Source: Escherichia phage vB_EcoM-G28
DNA: 64,000 nt
Direction: 5' to 3' (one strand)
Sequence record: NC_054916.1
A program made the translations under genes and the position numbers. How positions within the stretch are numbered: the stretch's first letter is position 1; each line of letters starts with the position of its first letter. Of the stretch, positions 784-39,202 are shown one piece after another. Below the pieces are notes generated by a model. It worked only from the letters and a program-made list of their open reading frames with translations. It ran no database searches and was not told the DNA's origin.

Positions 784-1500
784 ATGAATTATAAACTAAT
801 TTATGAAAAGTTAATCTCTAATGCTAAATCTCGAAAACTTGATTGCTATACTGAATCTCATCACATTATACCACGCTGTTTAAATGGTAGCGATGATGCT
901 TCAAACTTAGTAGATTTAACACCAGAAGAGCACTATGTAGCTCATCAACTTTTAGTAAAAATTTATCCTTCTGAACCAAAATTAGTCTATGCTGCTAACA
1001 TGATGACAGTTTCCACGAAATACGCTAAACGCAACAATAAAACTTTCGGTTGGATTCGTCGTAAACTCTGGGAAATAGAAAAGAATAAAGAATTCTCCCA
1101 GGAGACACGAAAGAAAATGTCTGATGCAGTAGCTAATAAAGCAAGACTAACTTGTCCTCATTGCGGTAAATCTGGATTAAGCGGGAATATGAATCGATGG
1201 CATTTTGATAACTGCCCGAATCACCCTAATCCTAAAGTTAGACCACCGATGTCTAAAGAACATAGAAATAATATCTCAAACGGACTTAAAGCAATCGTTC
1301 TTGAAGAAACATCCTGCGAATTCTGCGGAATGATAGGCAAGAAATGCGTTATCGCAGCGCATAGAAATTTCTGCAAGAAAAATCCAAATGGACGCAAGAA
1401 AACTGAAAAGACTGGTACTTGCGTCCATTGTGGTAAAGTTACCACTTTCGGAAATTTATCAAGATGGCATAATGATAACTGTAAATATAAACCTAGCTAA
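784..1500 (+). mobile_element. Free-standing HNH homing endonuclease (Mob family) with three C-terminal CxxC zinc-finger repeats
   Basis: N-terminal HHIIPRC...N...EEH HNH motif; three repeats of C-x2-C...W-H-x-D-N-C; ATG with AAGGA SD; only plus-strand gene in the early region. Confidence 0.8.
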
Positions 1501-3196: not shown

Positions 3197-4051
3197 TCAC
3201 AATGAAGAAAATTCTTTAACTAAAGCCTGTAATGAAGCCTCTATTGGATATCCATTCTTAACTAACATTTTCCTAAACATTACATGTTTAGGACGATTAT
3301 ATGATATCCACAATTCATACAATTTATCTTTATTATCCCAATGATAGCCTTTTCGTCGAGATGCTATATGAGCTTTTCTAATCTCCGGATTTTTCCAACT
3401 AGCAGCTACTGAATTTGATATAGCTATTTTATATTCAGGTTTTGATAAAGCAGCACGAACAGCCTTTTGGTGTTTAATTTTATTTTCTTCGTTATTAAAC
3501 CATTCCCTTGAAGCAATTGAAATTTTTTGTTTTGTTTTAAAATTATTTAATCTTTCTTTGTTATCTTTCCTATTTTTTGCTACTGAAAAATATTTTAATG
3601 CCCTTTCTCTAGCAGCATTTCTATTTTGCGGATTTGAATAATACTGTTGAAGCCTTTTTGATATTGTGTCACTTACATCTTGTTTTATAAAACTATATTC
3701 AGCAGCTATTAAATCAACTTCGGCTAAAGATAAATTTTTATATGTTTTTCCTGACATCATTCTATTTAAAGCATTTAGCATTTTTCCATTTTTACCTTTT
3801 GCTAATAAGAAATGTGCTTTAAAATGATTAAAATGACTTAAATTAACTAAATTCCATGTAGATTTTAAATATTCAGGAAATATTGATTTAGGAAGCACGT
3901 GGTGTGCTTCCGTTTTACCTGGAGTTTTAACAGTTGAATTCATAGAAATAAAATTAATGTAAGACTTGGCGTCTTCTTCACTCAACGCTAATTTTTCAAC
4001 TAATTCCTTTATTAAAAATTCATCATTAATGTCAAGTTTAAAATTCTTCAC
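3197..4051 (-). mobile_element. Free-standing HNH homing endonuclease between genes 46 and 47 (GTG start per track)
   Basis: EAHHVLPKS...NLVNLSHFNHFKAHFL HNH motif; C-terminal half resembles the C-terminus of the HNH at 23701-24480. Confidence 0.75.
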
Positions 4052-4311: not shown

Positions 4312-4498
4312 TATCTAAAATGTTGAAGTTAAAAGATACAGCCCAGTCAGTGCAGACTGTAACCTTTTTAATACAATTATCTTCAACCTCTAACGGTTCA
4401 AACCAATATTCAATAATTTCTTTATGCCCAATATCATCTTTTACTTCGCATTCAAAATGCTGACTCATCATAACATTTTTAAATTCATCAAAAGTCAT
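4235..4498 (-). CDS. Hypothetical small protein (87 aa)
   Basis: ORF in track starting in overlap with the gene 47 stop. Confidence 0.45.
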   Translation of the reverse strand: MTFDEFKNVMMSQHFECEVKDDIGHKEIIEYWFEPLEVEDNCIKKVTVCTDWAVSFNFNILDNDTPKSLRDMAVSCIKDAYCEVFDI

Positions 4499-5514
4499 TG
4501 TGTTGCCTCTACATATAACTGATTTGCATATTGAATAAGTGCTTCACGGTCAGAATCAGTGATGTCTGGAATTGCATTAATGTATTCTTCCATCAATGTC
4601 TGAAGAGATTGAACTTCAACTTCTTCACTATCATCTGACTCGACAGAGTTATCAATCTTTGACACAACTCGTAATGAATGCACAACTTTTTCTAGTTCAG
4701 ATTCGAACTTCGTTAGATTTTTGTCTACTTCAGTTACTATAACACGTACTGATAGATTTGTAAAATCTTTATAGTCAATTTTTCCTTTAAATGGATAATG
4801 AATTCTACGATGCCAGGTAGTGTTGTTTGGAATAAATTCCATTCGTTCTGTTTCTGTATCAAACATCCAGAACCCACGAGGGTCATTCTCGTCACCTGCA
4901 GTTAGTGTCCATGGTGTCCCAATATATCTGACGTTAGCAGCCTCAGAGATAGTATGGAAGTGACCAGACCACACTTCTTTATAAGTCTTAAGGAAATCAG
5001 GTTCAAGACCATGAGATTTCATTCCTTTATAAAAATAAAATCCATTCAGTTCCCAGTGACCAACACAAAAAGAAGCAGAAGAAGTTTTTATGTGCTCGAG
5101 AATTTCACCAGTATTTTCTTCACACATCCAAGGAATTAAATCAATTAAACATCCGTCAAAATCTACTGTAGTAGGCTTATCATACACTTTAACATTAGGA
5201 TATTTAGCCAAAAGCTCAGTAGAAGCATTTGGATGCATTACATTTTTGTAGTGGAGATCGTGATTTCCTACAATAGTATGTAATGTGATTCCAGCGTCAT
5301 CAAGCATTTGAACTATTTCACGGGCAAACTCCATAGTTTTATGTGTAATTGCTTTTCGCACATCAAAAATATCACCATATTGAATCCATACAGTAATTCC
5401 ATTTTTCTTAGAATATTCTATCGCTTGCTTAATTCCATCAATTTGAATACCGCGAATCCACTCATCATCAGCTTTAACGCCTAAATGCCAATCACCCAAG
5501 TTTAGTATTTTCAT
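4495..5514 (-). CDS. 47: Recombination endonuclease subunit gp47 (SbcD/Mre11-like phosphoesterase)
   Basis: 339 aa; N-terminal LGDWHLG and GNHD metallophosphatase motifs. Confidence 0.95.
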   Translation of the reverse strand: MKILNLGDWHLGVKADDEWIRGIQIDGIKQAIEYSKKNGITVWIQYGDIFDVRKAITHKTMEFAREIVQMLDDAGITLHTIVGNHDLHYKNVMHPNASTELLAKYPNVKVYDKPTTVDFDGCLIDLIPWMCEENTGEILEHIKTSSASFCVGHWELNGFYFYKGMKSHGLEPDFLKTYKEVWSGHFHTISEAANVRYIGTPWTLTAGDENDPRGFWMFDTETERMEFIPNNTTWHRRIHYPFKGKIDYKDFTNLSVRVIVTEVDKNLTKFESELEKVVHSLRVVSKIDNSVESDDSEEVEVQSLQTLMEEYINAIPDITDSDREALIQYANQLYVEATQ

Positions 5515-6115
5515 GGTGTCTTTTCCATCCTAATTTAGCTGCTTTTGAAACCAGTTCTTTAATTTTTCCTTTTGTCCATTCAGGACCAGGAGGTTCATGA
5601 CATAACATTTGCTTAACTCCGTTATTATACCATTTTTTACCTTTATTATGTGATGAAGCTTTAAATTTATTTGACCTTCCTTTTACATAACCTTCTGGAA
5701 TATAAGGCAAAAAGGCAGATTTTCCTGTTAATGGATCATGTGAATGTATATTTCCTTTACAATTATGAGAACCATATAATGGATGATTTTGTCCTTTATT
5801 ATCTCTTCCAAATGAACCTTTTGGAGCAGCATATGACATATTAAAGAATAATGGATTTTTAACTGCATCATGCAATCGTTGATAATATAACTCGCATTTA
5901 ATAGCTTCTTCACGCGTATCAAATTCAGCTAAAATGCATGAATCAAATAAGTGAGGATTATCTGAAAGCTCTTTATTATAAATTTTCTTATACTTTTTAG
6001 ATAAAACTGAACCATGATATCCAGCTAAATGCCTATCTAAAGACGTAGATCCAATATAAAAAGGAGGAAGTTTATCTCCGCTATATATTGTTAAATAAGT
6101 TATATATTTTTTCAT
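5492..6115 (-). mobile_element. Free-standing GIY-YIG homing endonuclease (Seg-like)
   Basis: N-terminal YLTIYSG...FYIGST with conserved Arg and Glu; basic C-terminal region; 3' end overlaps the gene 47 start by 23 nt. Confidence 0.75.
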
Positions 6116-6252
6116 ATATCAAGAACCGTCATTGAAATGCAAAATAAAATTATTGAAATAAACCCATCTGGTGTGCTAAAGAACCCAATCCAACATGCTC
6201 TAGTGAATAGATAAAATGCAAGAAAAAGTATCACATATCCAAGAAATATCAT
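6112..6252 (-). CDS. Small hydrophobic protein (46 aa), not in ORF track
   Basis: ATG at 6250-6252 with GGAG SD; translation MIFLGYVILFLAFYLFTRACWIGFF...; stop overlaps the ATG of the GIY-YIG gene. Confidence 0.4.
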   Translation of the reverse strand: MIFLGYVILFLAFYLFTRACWIGFFSTPDGFISIILFCISMTVLDI

Positions 6253-6275
6253 TATATCAAACTCCGTATAAAGCT

Positions 6276-6294
6276 AAAGGGCCGAAGCCCTTTA
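6276..6294. terminator. Stem-loop GGGC-CGAA-GCCC with flanking T-run
   Basis: Perfect inverted repeat with tetraloop; same core at 7547-7560, 9918-9929 and 36187-36200. Confidence 0.5.
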
Positions 6295-7494
6295 TTTTGT
6301 AATAATGTCAAACTGTTCTTTAAAGCAGAAGCTTGAATCTTGATGCTGATACAAAAATTCATAAGCTTTTTCGCGTTCGCGGTCATAAAGAGTTCGGTCA
6401 GATGACAGTTCTTTAATACGTTCAAATGTTGATTCCATGTCATTTTCATCAAACCAAATGATACCGCTATCATGCGAGGTCAAAGGAGTATTATCAACAC
6501 GGAATTTTAAATTTTCGCCAGTAGATTTCCAAAATACCGGAATTGTTCCACATGCACCAAGCTCGAGATGAGTATATTCTAAAGAGCGCTGTAGATATTT
6601 TTTATCCAACTTACTCAACTGATAACCAAAACCGGATTTACTCATACGTTCAAGCATTTCGCTATTTACATAACGGTCAAGAATTTGCGTTGGTAAATTA
6701 GGAGCAATTTTAATTTGGTCTACTTGATGAAGACGATAATACTCGTATGGAATTCCTTTTTCTTTAATAGGAATGAACGCTGGAGAACGTTCCAGACCTT
6801 CCATAATAGTACTTAGTCCTGCAGGTTTAAGATGTTTTTCATGAAAATCAAACATCTGATAAAAACCTTTCCATGTAGTCGTACGACCAATCCAACGGTT
6901 GATATTCATGTTAATTTCAGAAACATCTTTCCAGTAGGTTGACCGAACCTTCGCAATATCCATAGGAGGCTGAAAGTTATATACTGTCGGTGCTTCTTCA
7001 ATATCATCAAACAGAGAAACTGTTTCAGGATACCATTCTTTCATCAGAACTTTATTAAAATCACCATTATCAGAATGGCTAAAAATAACATCAGCTCGAC
7101 GAACAGTTTCTTCTAATCCCAAATTTCGGCGTAAAGAAAGAGAAGAATGGTCATGTTGATAAACTACAACACGAACCGAAGGTTTAATGTTATCAATAAT
7201 TTTTTTATAGTTATTAATAGTGTCTTCTTCAACTGAAGTAGCAGGAACTGAATTGATAATTAGAATATCACAATCATTTACCAGCTTAAGTGTTTTATCG
7301 TATTCTTTTGCCAATAAAACCGGAATTGAAAATGATTTATAATCATGCGCGCAATTACGAGTAAATGATTTATCTTTAGCATAAACCAAAGTTACTTCAT
7401 GACCATTCTTAATAAACCAATCACGTTGCTCAAGAGAAAATTTAGTTACACCACAACCTTCAAGACCTCGAGCCATAAAAATACATACTTTCAT
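6292..7494 (-). CDS. a-gt: DNA alpha-glucosyltransferase
   Basis: 400 aa; translation matches T4 alpha-glucosyltransferase along its length as I recall it (MKVCIFMARGLEGCGVTKFSLEQRDWFIKNGHEVTLVYAKDKSF...). Confidence 0.95.
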   Translation of the reverse strand: MKVCIFMARGLEGCGVTKFSLEQRDWFIKNGHEVTLVYAKDKSFTRNCAHDYKSFSIPVLLAKEYDKTLKLVNDCDILIINSVPATSVEEDTINNYKKIIDNIKPSVRVVVYQHDHSSLSLRRNLGLEETVRRADVIFSHSDNGDFNKVLMKEWYPETVSLFDDIEEAPTVYNFQPPMDIAKVRSTYWKDVSEINMNINRWIGRTTTWKGFYQMFDFHEKHLKPAGLSTIMEGLERSPAFIPIKEKGIPYEYYRLHQVDQIKIAPNLPTQILDRYVNSEMLERMSKSGFGYQLSKLDKKYLQRSLEYTHLELGACGTIPVFWKSTGENLKFRVDNTPLTSHDSGIIWFDENDMESTFERIKELSSDRTLYDREREKAYEFLYQHQDSSFCFKEQFDIITK

Positions 7495-7517
7495 TTAATA
7501 TCCTCTTTGTTTTGGTT

Positions 7518-7541
7518 TATTTTACCAAAAATTTATAAAGC
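7518..7541 (-). promoter_or_regulatory. Candidate middle promoter upstream of a-gt (TGCTTTA, 11-nt spacer, TAAAAT)
   Basis: Minus strand motif about 24 nt upstream of the a-gt ATG. Confidence 0.4.
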
Positions 7542-7546
7542 AATAT

Positions 7547-7560
7547 AGGAGCCGAAGCTC
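7547..7560. terminator. Stem-loop GGAGC-CGAA-GCTCC
   Basis: Perfect inverted repeat with CGAA tetraloop. Confidence 0.45.
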
Positions 7561-7737
7561 CTATCCACATAATACGCCATACAGAGGCTCGTTAGAACTT
7601 CTAAATTTTCTGCGCTTATATGTTATAGTTCCTTCTGCTTTAGCTTTATCATGAGACTCTTTAAAGCGTCTCATCATTTCCTCTTTAGAGGAACAAATTT
7701 TATTATAATCTATTTCAGAAGTCTGGGTGTTCATCTT

Positions 7738-7944
7738 TCATAACTGCCACCATTTTTTGACTTGATAAGAATCAACCCACACTTTCATATTAGGGTCTGC
7801 TCTTACAATAGGAGGATTAACTTCTTTAATTGAACTATCATGGTATTCTTTTTCAGAAATTTTCACACAAAGATGACCATTCAAAGATTCAGTAAATCCT
7901 GCATTAATTTTAAGACGCTTGAATTTTACGTGTGTAAGCATCAA
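7738..7944 (-). CDS. Hypothetical small early protein (68 aa)
   Basis: ORF in track. Confidence 0.45.
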   Translation of the reverse strand: MMLTHVKFKRLKINAGFTESLNGHLCVKISEKEYHDSSIKEVNPPIVRADPNMKVWVDSYQVKKWWQL

Positions 7945-22706: not shown

Positions 22707-23717
22707 TCATTTATAATAACTTCGGTGGTTTTCAAGATAGACCTTCTCAAGGAAGTCATCCCAGAAACCCATGTCCACTTTTTGCTGCATACCGTTCTTA
22801 GAAGCTTCAGTAGATGCTGCTTCTACTTGATCGACCACATCTTCCAAAAACTCTTGAACTGTTTTAAATGGATGCTTACCCAACTTCACGTCGAGAATAA
22901 ATGGAGCATCTTGGAGTGGATAAACCAAGTCACCAGTTTTGTAAATTTCCAATAGTTGGAGTCCACCACGACAAGCATGACTCAGAGCTTTCCAGTCAAT
23001 GCCCTCATTCGCTTCAGCCTTACGAGCGCGTTCGCCGTATTCAGCATCAAGTTTATTCAAAGATTGCTTAAGCTCGATAAGAGAAAGCGTTGTTTGATAT
23101 TTACGACCCAACACAGTGTAGAACGTTTGTGGGCCTGTTTTCTCATGATTATGGAACACCCATTCACAGAATTCGTTTTCTGGAAGACGATGCTTAATAT
23201 CTTCAACTTTAGTACGACGCTGCTTAATGGAACCGTCTTCTTGATAATCAACCCACTGATCAGGGATTTGATTAACTACTTTCAATACATCACGTAATGC
23301 GGCCAAACGAGAACCCTTAACGCCGTATTTAGAAGCTTGCTTGCGAACATATCCTAAATAGGATTTCATGTTAGTCGTATAAAAACGAGAACGATTGTCT
23401 TGAATAAACTTCCATACATCAGGCAAATCAGATTTAACCACTAGTTCAGGCGGAGTGTGAAGCATATCCAATGCTACAGTTTCACCATCTGCTGCTAATT
23501 TAAAGAAATACTTAAGACTGTATAGTTCATGGTCAATATCATCTTTAGTGTTTTTAGATGATGTGTTGTTAGTGTTTTTACTCATATGCTCTTTAACATT
23601 TCCGATAAGAATATCACGAGCAGGAGGAACAAAGATTTCTTTAAAATCTACATCAGATTCTGGAGTAGAAGTTCCATAAAGATGACTACCAAAATAAGAC
23701 TTAACTACAGTTTTCAT
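22707..23717 (-). CDS. Pol-beta-superfamily nucleotidyltransferase-like protein (about 336 aa), nrdC.11 position
   Basis: N-terminal GSHLYGTSTPESDVDF (GS...DxD) motif; track start is TTG, moved to ATG at 23717 with AAGG SD. Confidence 0.6.
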   Translation of the reverse strand: MKTVVKSYFGSHLYGTSTPESDVDFKEIFVPPARDILIGNVKEHMSKNTNNTSSKNTKDDIDHELYSLKYFFKLAADGETVALDMLHTPPELVVKSDLPDVWKFIQDNRSRFYTTNMKSYLGYVRKQASKYGVKGSRLAALRDVLKVVNQIPDQWVDYQEDGSIKQRRTKVEDIKHRLPENEFCEWVFHNHEKTGPQTFYTVLGRKYQTTLSLIELKQSLNKLDAEYGERARKAEANEGIDWKALSHACRGGLQLLEIYKTGDLVYPLQDAPFILDVKLGKHPFKTVQEFLEDVVDQVEAASTEASKNGMQQKVDMGFWDDFLEKVYLENHRSYYK

Positions 23718-24480
23718 TATTAGACCTTTCATAATCTTCATTAAATTGTACAATCAATCGATGATAATTAGATTTTGGATATCCTAATTTACTTATATAA
23801 GTTCCGAATGACCCACGTTTAGGTCTATTTAATTTAATCCATAACTTATAAAGTAAGTCATAGTCTTGCCAATGTTTACCAGTTCTTTGTCTAATTTTAG
23901 ATGAATTTGATTGTTTCTTTTTAGTTTCAAAATTATTCAAAGATTTTTTGACTGCAGCAGAGTGTTTTTCTTTAACTCCCGGTCGTTTAAAAGCAGCTTT
24001 CACCCCTTTAGATATTTTTTCTTTAACTTCCGGTTTGTTTTGTGCTTCTAACTGGGATTCTGAAATTTTAGCCCTTATTTCAGGAAGACTTAATGTTATC
24101 GAACGTTTTTCTCTGTATTCATTAGACTTCCACATTTCTTTCATTGTATTAGAATGTATTTTTGAAAATTTTTCTCTAACTAACTGATATCCTCTTGAAG
24201 TTAATTTGAGATTTCTTCCTAAAGAATCTTCTCCAAAATTATAAAATGACCACCATGCATAAATTAATCCAGGCGAATTATAATGAATTTTAGCTAAAAG
24301 CCAATGGGCTATAAAATGCTCTCTAGCTGTTAATAAAACTAGATTATCAGAATCATCATTACCACCAATACAAGATGGAATAATATGATGCTTTTCCGTA
24401 TAAAAATTTAATTTAGATTTATCTAATTTTCTGAGTTTTCCTTTCTTAATTAAATTATTATATACTTTAGTATAATTCAT
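23701..24480 (-). mobile_element. HNH homing endonuclease at the mobD position (Mob family)
   Basis: EKHHIIPSC...N...REH motif; N-terminus paralogous to the HNH at 784-1500; C-terminus paralogous to the HNH at 3197-4051. Confidence 0.8.
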
Positions 24481-38536: not shown

Positions 38537-39202
38537 TTAAAATTTCATTTTTCGACCTTTAAACCATCCTTCTGGAATTGGGTCAGTTTTCTTAATACGT
38601 TTAGAAACTTTTTCATCTAATGAATGAATCCACATCATACCAAATTGGGAATTCTTTTCGCCCTGTTGGTGTTTATTTCTGGCGTGAGATTCTTTCATTT
38701 TATTAATAGTTTCATCTGAATGGGACTTACCCAAGAAAGATTTAGTATTTGAAAATTTCTCTCTATACTTAGGATTATCCCAAAGCTGTTTAAACCTTTC
38801 TGAACCCATTTTACGATATTTTTCTTTAAGGTCTGGGTCGTTCTCAAATCTGGTTTTAAAAGCGGCAACTCCTTTTAAGGAAGCTTCTTTCTTTTTATCC
38901 AAATATTCTTTAGTGTTTAAATGGTCCCAACCACCTTCACCACCTAATTTCAAATTATAAACGTCAGGGCGCTTTAAAAACTCTTCAGTCACAATATTCT
39001 TTTCTGACTCAAACATAGAGGTTTTATCGTCAAAGAACTCTAATATTTCTTTAGAGAAATTTTCTATACCATACTTGTCTTGGGCTCTTTTTAATAATTT
39101 ACCAGAACCCATATATCCATCATCTAAATTTTCGGTAGAATGAGCGCCTATATAGATTTTATTATTAATTTTATTTGTTATTTTATAAGTGTAATGGAAC
39201 AT
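38537..39202 (-). mobile_element. segB: GIY-YIG homing endonuclease SegB in the tRNA cluster
   Basis: 221 aa; N-terminal YTYKIT...IYIGAHS GIY-YIG motif; same size and location as T4 segB. Confidence 0.8.

Follow-up and report, generated by a model that had tools for sequence, protein, structure and literature searches.

A Seg-like GIY-YIG endonuclease gene in front of gene 47 of Escherichia phage vB_EcoM-G28, a probable homing cassette present in some of its relatives

In the stretch of 64,000 nucleotides (nt) of Escherichia phage vB_EcoM-G28 analysed here (NC_054916.1; the window in what follows), a free-standing Seg-like GIY-YIG endonuclease gene (5492..6115, minus strand; 207 amino acids (aa), ATG start) lies between gene 47.1 and the recombination gene 47. 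We suggest, with a probability of roughly 0.8, that it represents a Seg-type homing endonuclease gene that is intact, probably active and carried as an optional cassette of 601 bp. We propose this because of the predicted fold of the product, a clean insertion/deletion, purifying selection, mosaic flanks and a link to gene 47 that extends across phage genera. From the comparison of sequences we infer that the enzyme cleaves DNA and that the gene homes, and also where it may cut and what may protect the carrier.

The gene is real and not a chance open reading frame (ORF), because its product matches a PHROG family at E 1e-94, a protein database search returned 170 homologues, and the ratio of nonsynonymous to synonymous substitution rates (dN/dS) between two haplotypes is 0.04-0.07. 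The protein starts with MKKYITYLTIYSGDKLPPFYIGST, in agreement with the N-terminal GIY-YIG module that had been quoted in a sequence-only reading of this DNA, and its catalytic domain covers approximately residues 1-100. Residues 101-207, which presumably bind DNA, are indeed basic and rich in Lys and Gly as that reading had it (isoelectric point 9.97, 17 Lys, 13 Gly).

Predicted fold and relation to known endonucleases

To describe the family, 38 diverse homologues out of the database search matches were aligned. An AlphaFold2 model based on this alignment has a mean predicted local distance difference test score (pLDDT) of 85.8, with values above 92 over residues 1-100. When the model was compared to the PDB using Foldseek, the top matches were the catalytic domain of I-TevI (1ln0/1mk0, probability 1.0), and all structure matches were GIY-YIG proteins. 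We assign the GIY-YIG nuclease fold, an alpha/beta fold in which helices flank a three-stranded sheet that bears both motifs, to the modelled protein because the structure comparison favours the I-TevI catalytic domain, and the model thus supports the endonuclease class first suggested from the sequence. The Pfam GIY-YIG family (PF01541) is matched over model positions 2-74 of 78, at E 3e-4. The same family is matched by 14 of the 38 aligned members (E <= 0.01), and NUMOD3 repeats are present in 17 of them; a search of NCBIfam with the endonuclease gave no match.

Residues Y7, T9, Y11, G13, P17, Y20, I21, G22, S23, Y33, G35 and S39 are invariant in the 38 sequences, as are L56, F57, A71, E75 and N92; R68 is, along with Y33, (nearly) invariant in the family. 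Both motif tyrosines are thus among the invariant positions, in TIY (Y11) and in Y20-I21-G22. E75 and N92 are spaced like E75 and N90 of I-TevI, equivalence being judged by this spacing.

The protein is Seg-like, yet it is no orthologue of T4 SegA-G, because identity is low and the locus is empty in T4. The best matches among T4 endonucleases are SegG (27% over 109 aa) and SegE (28% over 193 aa), and the family profile scores 36.9 bits against SegE. A tblastn search of the whole T4 genome likewise found no orthologue, the best hit being a 28% match to segE at E 0.028. In T4, T2 and RB14, 47.1 abuts 47 with the same ATGA overlap that is described below; in T6 a gap of 176 nt has room for 47.1 alone, and in RB3, RB9, RB18 and RB27 the junction is uninterrupted as judged by coverage. 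The insert is thus absent from T4, T2, T6 and these RB phages, and the suggestion that T4 has no Seg gene at this position is upheld. This agrees with a 2010 review of T4 mobile elements, where Table 1 has no endonuclease gene at 47.1/47 (PMC2988022).

In its general features the gene nonetheless resembles T4 SegA-SegG: it encodes about 200 aa with an N-terminal GIY-YIG domain and a basic C-terminal half, it overlaps its neighbours, it sits promoter-less and in the same orientation between conserved genes, it occurs sporadically in T-even phages, and it adjoins a conserved gene of DNA metabolism, with SegE and SegG being closest by sequence. It differs from them in its locus and low identity, and in that the Arg following the YIG motif varies in its family. 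The gene also differs from I-TevI, the GIY-YIG enzyme encoded in the T4 td intron, in that it is not intron-borne, phmmer finds no sequence similarity between the two, and a Pfam scan reveals neither a zinc finger nor an I-TevI-type helix-turn-helix.

Two more systems are useful for comparison. Sandegren and colleagues are said to have described in 2005 that SegH and Hef replace mobC and mobE in T4 relatives. These are likewise optional endonuclease genes in phages that differ from T4 at the site in question, but they belong to nrd loci, whereas the T4 site at 47.1/47 is empty and not filled by another endonuclease. Yersinia phage TG1 gp009, a NUMOD3-containing GIY-YIG protein, shares the same N-terminal domain family (45% identity), but its gene lies upstream of topoisomerase gene 39/60; proteins of that type have clear NUMOD3 repeats and occupy other loci, while in the window protein no more than a single degenerate motif (GQNHPLYGSH) resembles NUMOD3, and Pfam NUMOD3 is not matched.

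The insertion, its flanks and its distribution

Alignment with T2 and T4 identifies an extra segment of 601 bp (5514..6114, minus strand). This is one of eight equivalent placements, because the sequence ATGAAAA is repeated at both ends; records without the endonuclease gene cover 81% of a 3.2-kb query. The endonuclease ATG lies in the left copy of the 7-nt direct repeat (6109..6115, minus strand), which overlaps the 47.1 stop codon, and in phages with an empty site this ATG is the start codon of gene 47. The right copy (5508..5514, minus strand) is the start of gene 47 in vB_EcoM-G28 and is embedded in the endonuclease codons for His-Glu-Asn, gene 47 starting within the last eight codons of the endonuclease. 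At this junction the endonuclease start occupies the place of the T4 gene 47 start codon. Both overlaps that had been noted from the sequence are present: the 3' end of the ORF shares 23 nt with gene 47 (5492-5514), and its ATG overlaps the TGA of the small hydrophobic ORF at 6112-6252, which is 47.1, in the form ATGA.

The endonuclease gene is accompanied by synonymous changes at gene 47 nt 9, 10, 15 and 18 (5497..5506, minus strand), where codons 3-6 read ATA CTA AAC TTG as compared to ATT TTA AAT TTA in empty-site phages. We compared the flanks of eight carriers and 11 non-carriers, using 907 nt upstream and 1020 nt of gene 47. Only three sites, all in gene 47, are fixed for different bases in the two groups, namely nt 9 (T>A), nt 15 (T>C) and nt 18 (A>G), and the change at nt 10 (T>C) is found in seven of the eight carriers; all four are silent. 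These same genomes have no variable site at -46 to +8 or at +19 to +35. The flanks are mosaic, since every other polymorphism is common to carriers and non-carriers. A divergent allele of gene 47 (nt 58-281) is present in five of the 11 non-carriers and none of the eight carriers (Fisher p = 0.045). Directly after the recoded codons, at codon 7, begins motif I of gene 47 (GDWHLG).

The junction was found in 503 Tequatrovirus records, being uninterrupted in 436 and occupied in 67 (~13%), and a tblastn search at >=90% identity likewise yields 67 carriers. Otherwise collinear genomes thus differ in having or lacking the gene at this one precise site. The encoded protein is at least 99% identical in 48 of the 67 records. 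Two haplotypes, about 22 nt apart, exist in Tequatrovirus, and 23 of the 32 variable sites in the gene are synonymous and nine non-synonymous. With a dN/dS of 0.036-0.068 within Tequatrovirus and 0.10-0.24 between genera, the gene is under strong purifying selection. Yersinia phage fPS-90 carries the T4-type a-gt allele, and of the 907 nt upstream 104 therefore deviate from the window, compared to only 3 of 624 nt in the endonuclease gene; the gene is thus far more uniform than its surroundings. Some copies are possibly damaged, namely those of ESh34 (a 1-nt insertion), ESh36 and ZCEC15 (a match in two pieces each) and, outside Tequatrovirus, KPV15 (a split ORF). An internal deletion in KNP1/KNP5 was considered as a sign of decay and rejected, as the record has a run of N where sequence seemed to be missing.

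An empty junction together with all four carrier-type codons is seen in SHFML-26 (L049, 1533-1553), vB_Eco_BCPEco_001, vB_Sen_BCPSen_003 and Ec_YwIITB1, and RB14 has one of the four changes. Such sites may have arisen by precise loss of the cassette through the 7-nt repeat, or they may be cleavage-resistant alleles that are unoccupied.

Relatives adjacent to gene 47 occur in seven genera, Tequatrovirus included. They are found in Salmonella phage SEA1 (Gelderlandvirus; 80% identity, with the same 23-nt overlap with gene 47), Serratia phage LC53 (Winklervirus; 70%, with a 121-nt spacer before gene 47), Klebsiella phage KPV15 (Jiaodavirus; 69%, directly upstream of gene 47), AV118 (Mosigvirus; 65%, 1-nt overlap), QL01 (Dhakavirus; 61%, 14-nt overlap) and Aeromonas phage avDM2 (Biquartavirus; 49%, 23-nt overlap). 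The neighbours on the upstream side vary, and the constant partner of the gene is therefore gene 47, not a-gt or 47.1. Presence and absence are mixed within Dhakavirus and Gelderlandvirus as well. Every member of the ~200-aa subfamily terminates in (H/N)EN followed by two to five variable residues, and the codons for this motif include ATGAAAAT, with which gene 47 (MKI) begins; the same string is present in the codons for YEN, the end of a longer subfamily. As in Tequatrovirus, the Dhakavirus carrier QL01 differs synonymously from non-carriers in gene 47 codons 3-6. The earlier proposal of a lineage-specific homing endonuclease thus holds as far as absence from T4 is concerned, but not in its restriction to one lineage, given the sporadic occurrence in Tequatrovirus and the relatives at the same position in six other genera; the homing part is our interpretation.

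In SEA1 (L009) and QL01 (L011/L034), 47.1 is missing, while non-carriers with a closely similar gene 47 (L030 for the former; L031-L033/L040 for the latter) have kept it. In carriers of the genera Gelderlandvirus and Dhakavirus the endonuclease gene thus replaces 47.1, whereas the two coexist in Tequatrovirus, so that the cassette does not have the same left boundary in all genera. More distant relatives, with 35-59% identity in the N-terminal domain only, are common in environmental phages and mostly lie away from gene 47. The idea that the wider family is always found beside gene 47 was accordingly dropped: this is true of only the three closest (>=61% identity) of 80 IMG/VR loci. In one of the loci (L130), a gp47 relative is encoded ~290 nt away on the opposite strand.

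Mode of action and alternative readings

T-even phages are the model system for intronless homing and marker exclusion. If the gene is a homing element, then co-infecting genomes without it would, in a mixed infection, receive a double-strand break from the enzyme, the conserved 5' end of gene 47 or its vicinity being the most likely place. After resection, recombination from the carrier genome would repair this break, so that the cassette would be copied into the recipient along with the first six codons of gene 47, resulting in intronless homing and local marker exclusion. The carrier genome might be protected by the insertion, which splits the 47.1/47 junction, by the recoded codons 3-6 of gene 47, or by both. 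The 5' end of gene 47, or its vicinity, is an uncertain but likely site of action, because gene 47 is the only constant neighbour and because the only linked polymorphisms are located there.

Several observations weigh against the interpretation as an active homing endonuclease gene that targets the start of gene 47. The Pfam GIY-YIG score of 21.4 bits narrowly misses the gathering cut-off of 22.6, and sequence searches against the PDB, with the protein (phmmer) and with the family profile, returned nothing useful. The Arg after the YIG motif is catalytic in I-TevI; R28 stands at the expected place in the window protein, but this column contains R, K, N or Q in the family. In Gelderlandvirus, the carrier SEA1 is identical to the non-carrier L030 over gene 47 codons 1-16, and recoding is therefore no universal companion of the endonuclease gene. 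ERS-1 would be a carrier with T2-type codons, though we give it no weight, as its record is labelled UNVERIFIED_ORG and contains several compensating frameshifts. We found no paper in the literature that names or tests the gene. Finally, the cleavage sites of known free-standing enzymes are at distances of hundreds to thousands of bp from the endonuclease gene itself (PMC2988022), and the 5' end of gene 47 as a target is therefore a guess.

Another possibility is that the nuclease has been domesticated and benefits the phage, either by excluding competitors through a cut in the gene 47 region or by stimulating recombination or amplification nearby. The strong purifying selection and the retention at one locus in seven genera would fit such a role, and there are precedents, in that SegB is reported to amplify anti-defence loci (PMC13096335) and an intron endonuclease to serve in phage competition (PMC11620839). 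We nevertheless consider it improbable: the sporadic distribution, in 13% of Tequatrovirus records and mixed in Dhakavirus and Gelderlandvirus, is more in keeping with a selfish element than with a core function useful to the phage, and no gene related to defence or anti-defence is linked to the endonuclease. This possibility does overlap with that of a homing gene, in that homing and exclusion of a competitor would be brought about by the same cut.

A slightly poorer prospect still is that of a decaying relic, in which the enzyme is inactive and the gene survives only for providing the region where translation of the essential gene 47 starts. The ATG of gene 47 lies within the endonuclease ORF, meaning that most deletions would harm gene 47, and both the damaged-looking copies in ESh34, ESh36, ZCEC15 and KPV15 and the variability of the canonical Arg column would be expected of such a relic. 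However, the dN/dS of 0.04-0.07 holds across the whole ORF, showing that selection acts on the protein and not just on the final 30 nt; the near-identity of the protein in 48 of 67 records and the invariant catalytic-motif residues in 38 diverse members point in the same direction. In addition, the four phages that combine an empty site with carrier-type codons suggest that precise loss is possible and that the gene is not trapped.

That the gene encodes an HNH endonuclease, as many RefSeq records and phrog_10820 label it, has next to nothing in its favour beyond the label itself, since the model matches GIY-YIG structures exclusively, a Pfam scan detects no HNH family at E <= 0.1 and there is no significant similarity to T4 MobB-E. 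The label is wrong. In GenBank, some of the ~67 records (BASEL phages) carry the name 'putative homing endonuclease' and many 'HNH endonuclease'. The mislabel is systematic in Tequatrovirus RefSeq records (e.g. NC_054933, NC_054911 and NC_054919) and in phrog_10820.

Starting from the homing interpretation, we tentatively speculate, while thinking it rather doubtful, that the gene belongs to an old and distinct Seg-like lineage that is specialised on the start of gene 47, whose Mre11/SbcD-like product itself resects breaks in the course of homing, and that recognises the ultra-conserved sequence for motif I (GDWHLG). The cassette would then always bring along recoded gene 47 codons 1-6, and the conserved overlap, with the gene 47 ATG in the HEN tail of the endonuclease, would couple expression of gene 47 to that of the endonuclease. 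If this were true, the element would be immune to itself and costly to lose. It would also be the first homing endonuclease family tracked at the start of one and the same gene through seven or more phage genera.

For a specialist there is nothing surprising in an uncharacterised member of a very well-known kind of endonuclease. The catalogue of T-even endonucleases rests largely on T4, though, which lacks this gene. The locus also provides a clean natural test system: carriers and non-carriers have been sequenced in large numbers, the insertion/deletion of 601 bp is confined to a single site, and four silent changes in gene 47, which is essential, are tightly linked to it. Natural empty-site alleles with carrier codons would be expected to withstand the enzyme. 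Collections for phage therapy and of the BASEL type include the gene, which could distort the inheritance of markers around 46/47 in crosses and engineering. Correcting the 'HNH endonuclease' label in RefSeq is a small but real practical gain.

Neighbourhood and other endonuclease genes

The gene order, all on the minus strand, is a-gt, 47.1, endonuclease, 47, 46.2, 46.1, an HNH-like ORF and 46. The a-gt gene (6292-7494, minus strand) matches Pfam AGT at E 4e-237. Gene 47 (4495..5514, minus strand) encodes an Mre11/SbcD-like recombination nuclease subunit with a Pfam Metallophos (metallophosphoesterase) domain. Gene 47.1 (6112..6252, minus strand), the upstream neighbour, lies outside the insert and is a conserved T4 gene. 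Its small hydrophobic product (46 aa, grand average of hydropathy (GRAVY) 1.73) is 100% identical to gp47.1 of T4/T2, a 'predicted membrane protein', and belongs to PHROG 6693 (E 1.5e-31). The 3.2 kb around the endonuclease gene is a Tequatrovirus-type segment with 99.3% identity to Escherichia phage vB_EcoM_G2540-3, and without the insert it is 93.6% identical to T4.

A match to the T4 middle-promoter pattern GCTT-N14-TATAAT is located at 6251..6274 (minus strand), one of seven in the window where 1.3 would be expected, and in phage SA20RB the corresponding site carries a middle-promoter annotation. The endonuclease would be the first complete ORF of transcripts from this site, because the -10 box overlaps the ATG of 47.1. 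Directly after a-gt, a GC-rich terminator-like hairpin, AAAGGGCTTCGGCCCTTT (6275..6294), parts a-gt from the unit of 47.1, endonuclease and 47; it is annotated as a terminator in G2540-3, fPS-90 and SA20RB. The late-promoter motif (TATAAATA) does not occur between 5300 and 6500, sigma-70 matches were no more numerous than in shuffled sequences, and there is no obvious Shine-Dalgarno sequence ahead of the endonuclease ATG. The gene thus seems to have no promoter of its own and is probably read from the middle-promoter-like site upstream of 47.1. Free-standing T4 endonucleases have been described as promoter-less cassettes that overlap their neighbours, are weakly translated and cut a neighbouring gene, and the apparent lack of a promoter and the overlaps seen here match this picture (PMC2988022).

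The HNH-like ORF between genes 46 and 46.1 (3197-4051, minus strand) encodes a Mob-like protein of 284 aa. It is 98% identical over 203 aa to the T2 'homing endonuclease' T2_056, the T2 copy ending at 204 aa, and 30% identical to T4 MobD. The site is empty in T4, while T6 has the full ORF of 855 bp, and SHFML-26 and Pu-Krd-SF7 have an annotated 'homing endonuclease' ORF of the same size there. Between 46 and 46.1 the 46/47 cluster has another slot, the second, for an optional endonuclease gene.

A Mob-like HNH ORF of 238 aa lies on the opposite strand in the interval from 45.2 to 46 (784-1500, plus strand). Its C-terminal half contains three CxxC...W(H/N)xDNC repeats, and it shows 44-53% identity to the N-termini of T4 MobB/D/E. 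The late-promoter motif TATAAATA is found at 743-750, 34 nt upstream of its ATG. The corresponding gap between 45.2 and 46 in T4 is only ~55 nt. Together with the 284-aa ORF and the endonuclease ORF at 47.1/47, three endonuclease genes thus bracket 46/47 in vB_EcoM-G28.

T4 mobB was also considered as an occupant of the 47.1/47 slot and rejected, since annotation puts it beyond a-gt, between a-gt and a-gt.2; in the window, that interval (7495-7740, minus strand) is without mobB, as it is in T2 and T6. Further along the window are two more homing endonuclease genes, mobD (23704-24480, minus strand), which is 99.6% identical to T4 MobD, and segB (38540-39202, minus strand), with 82% identity to T4 SegB.

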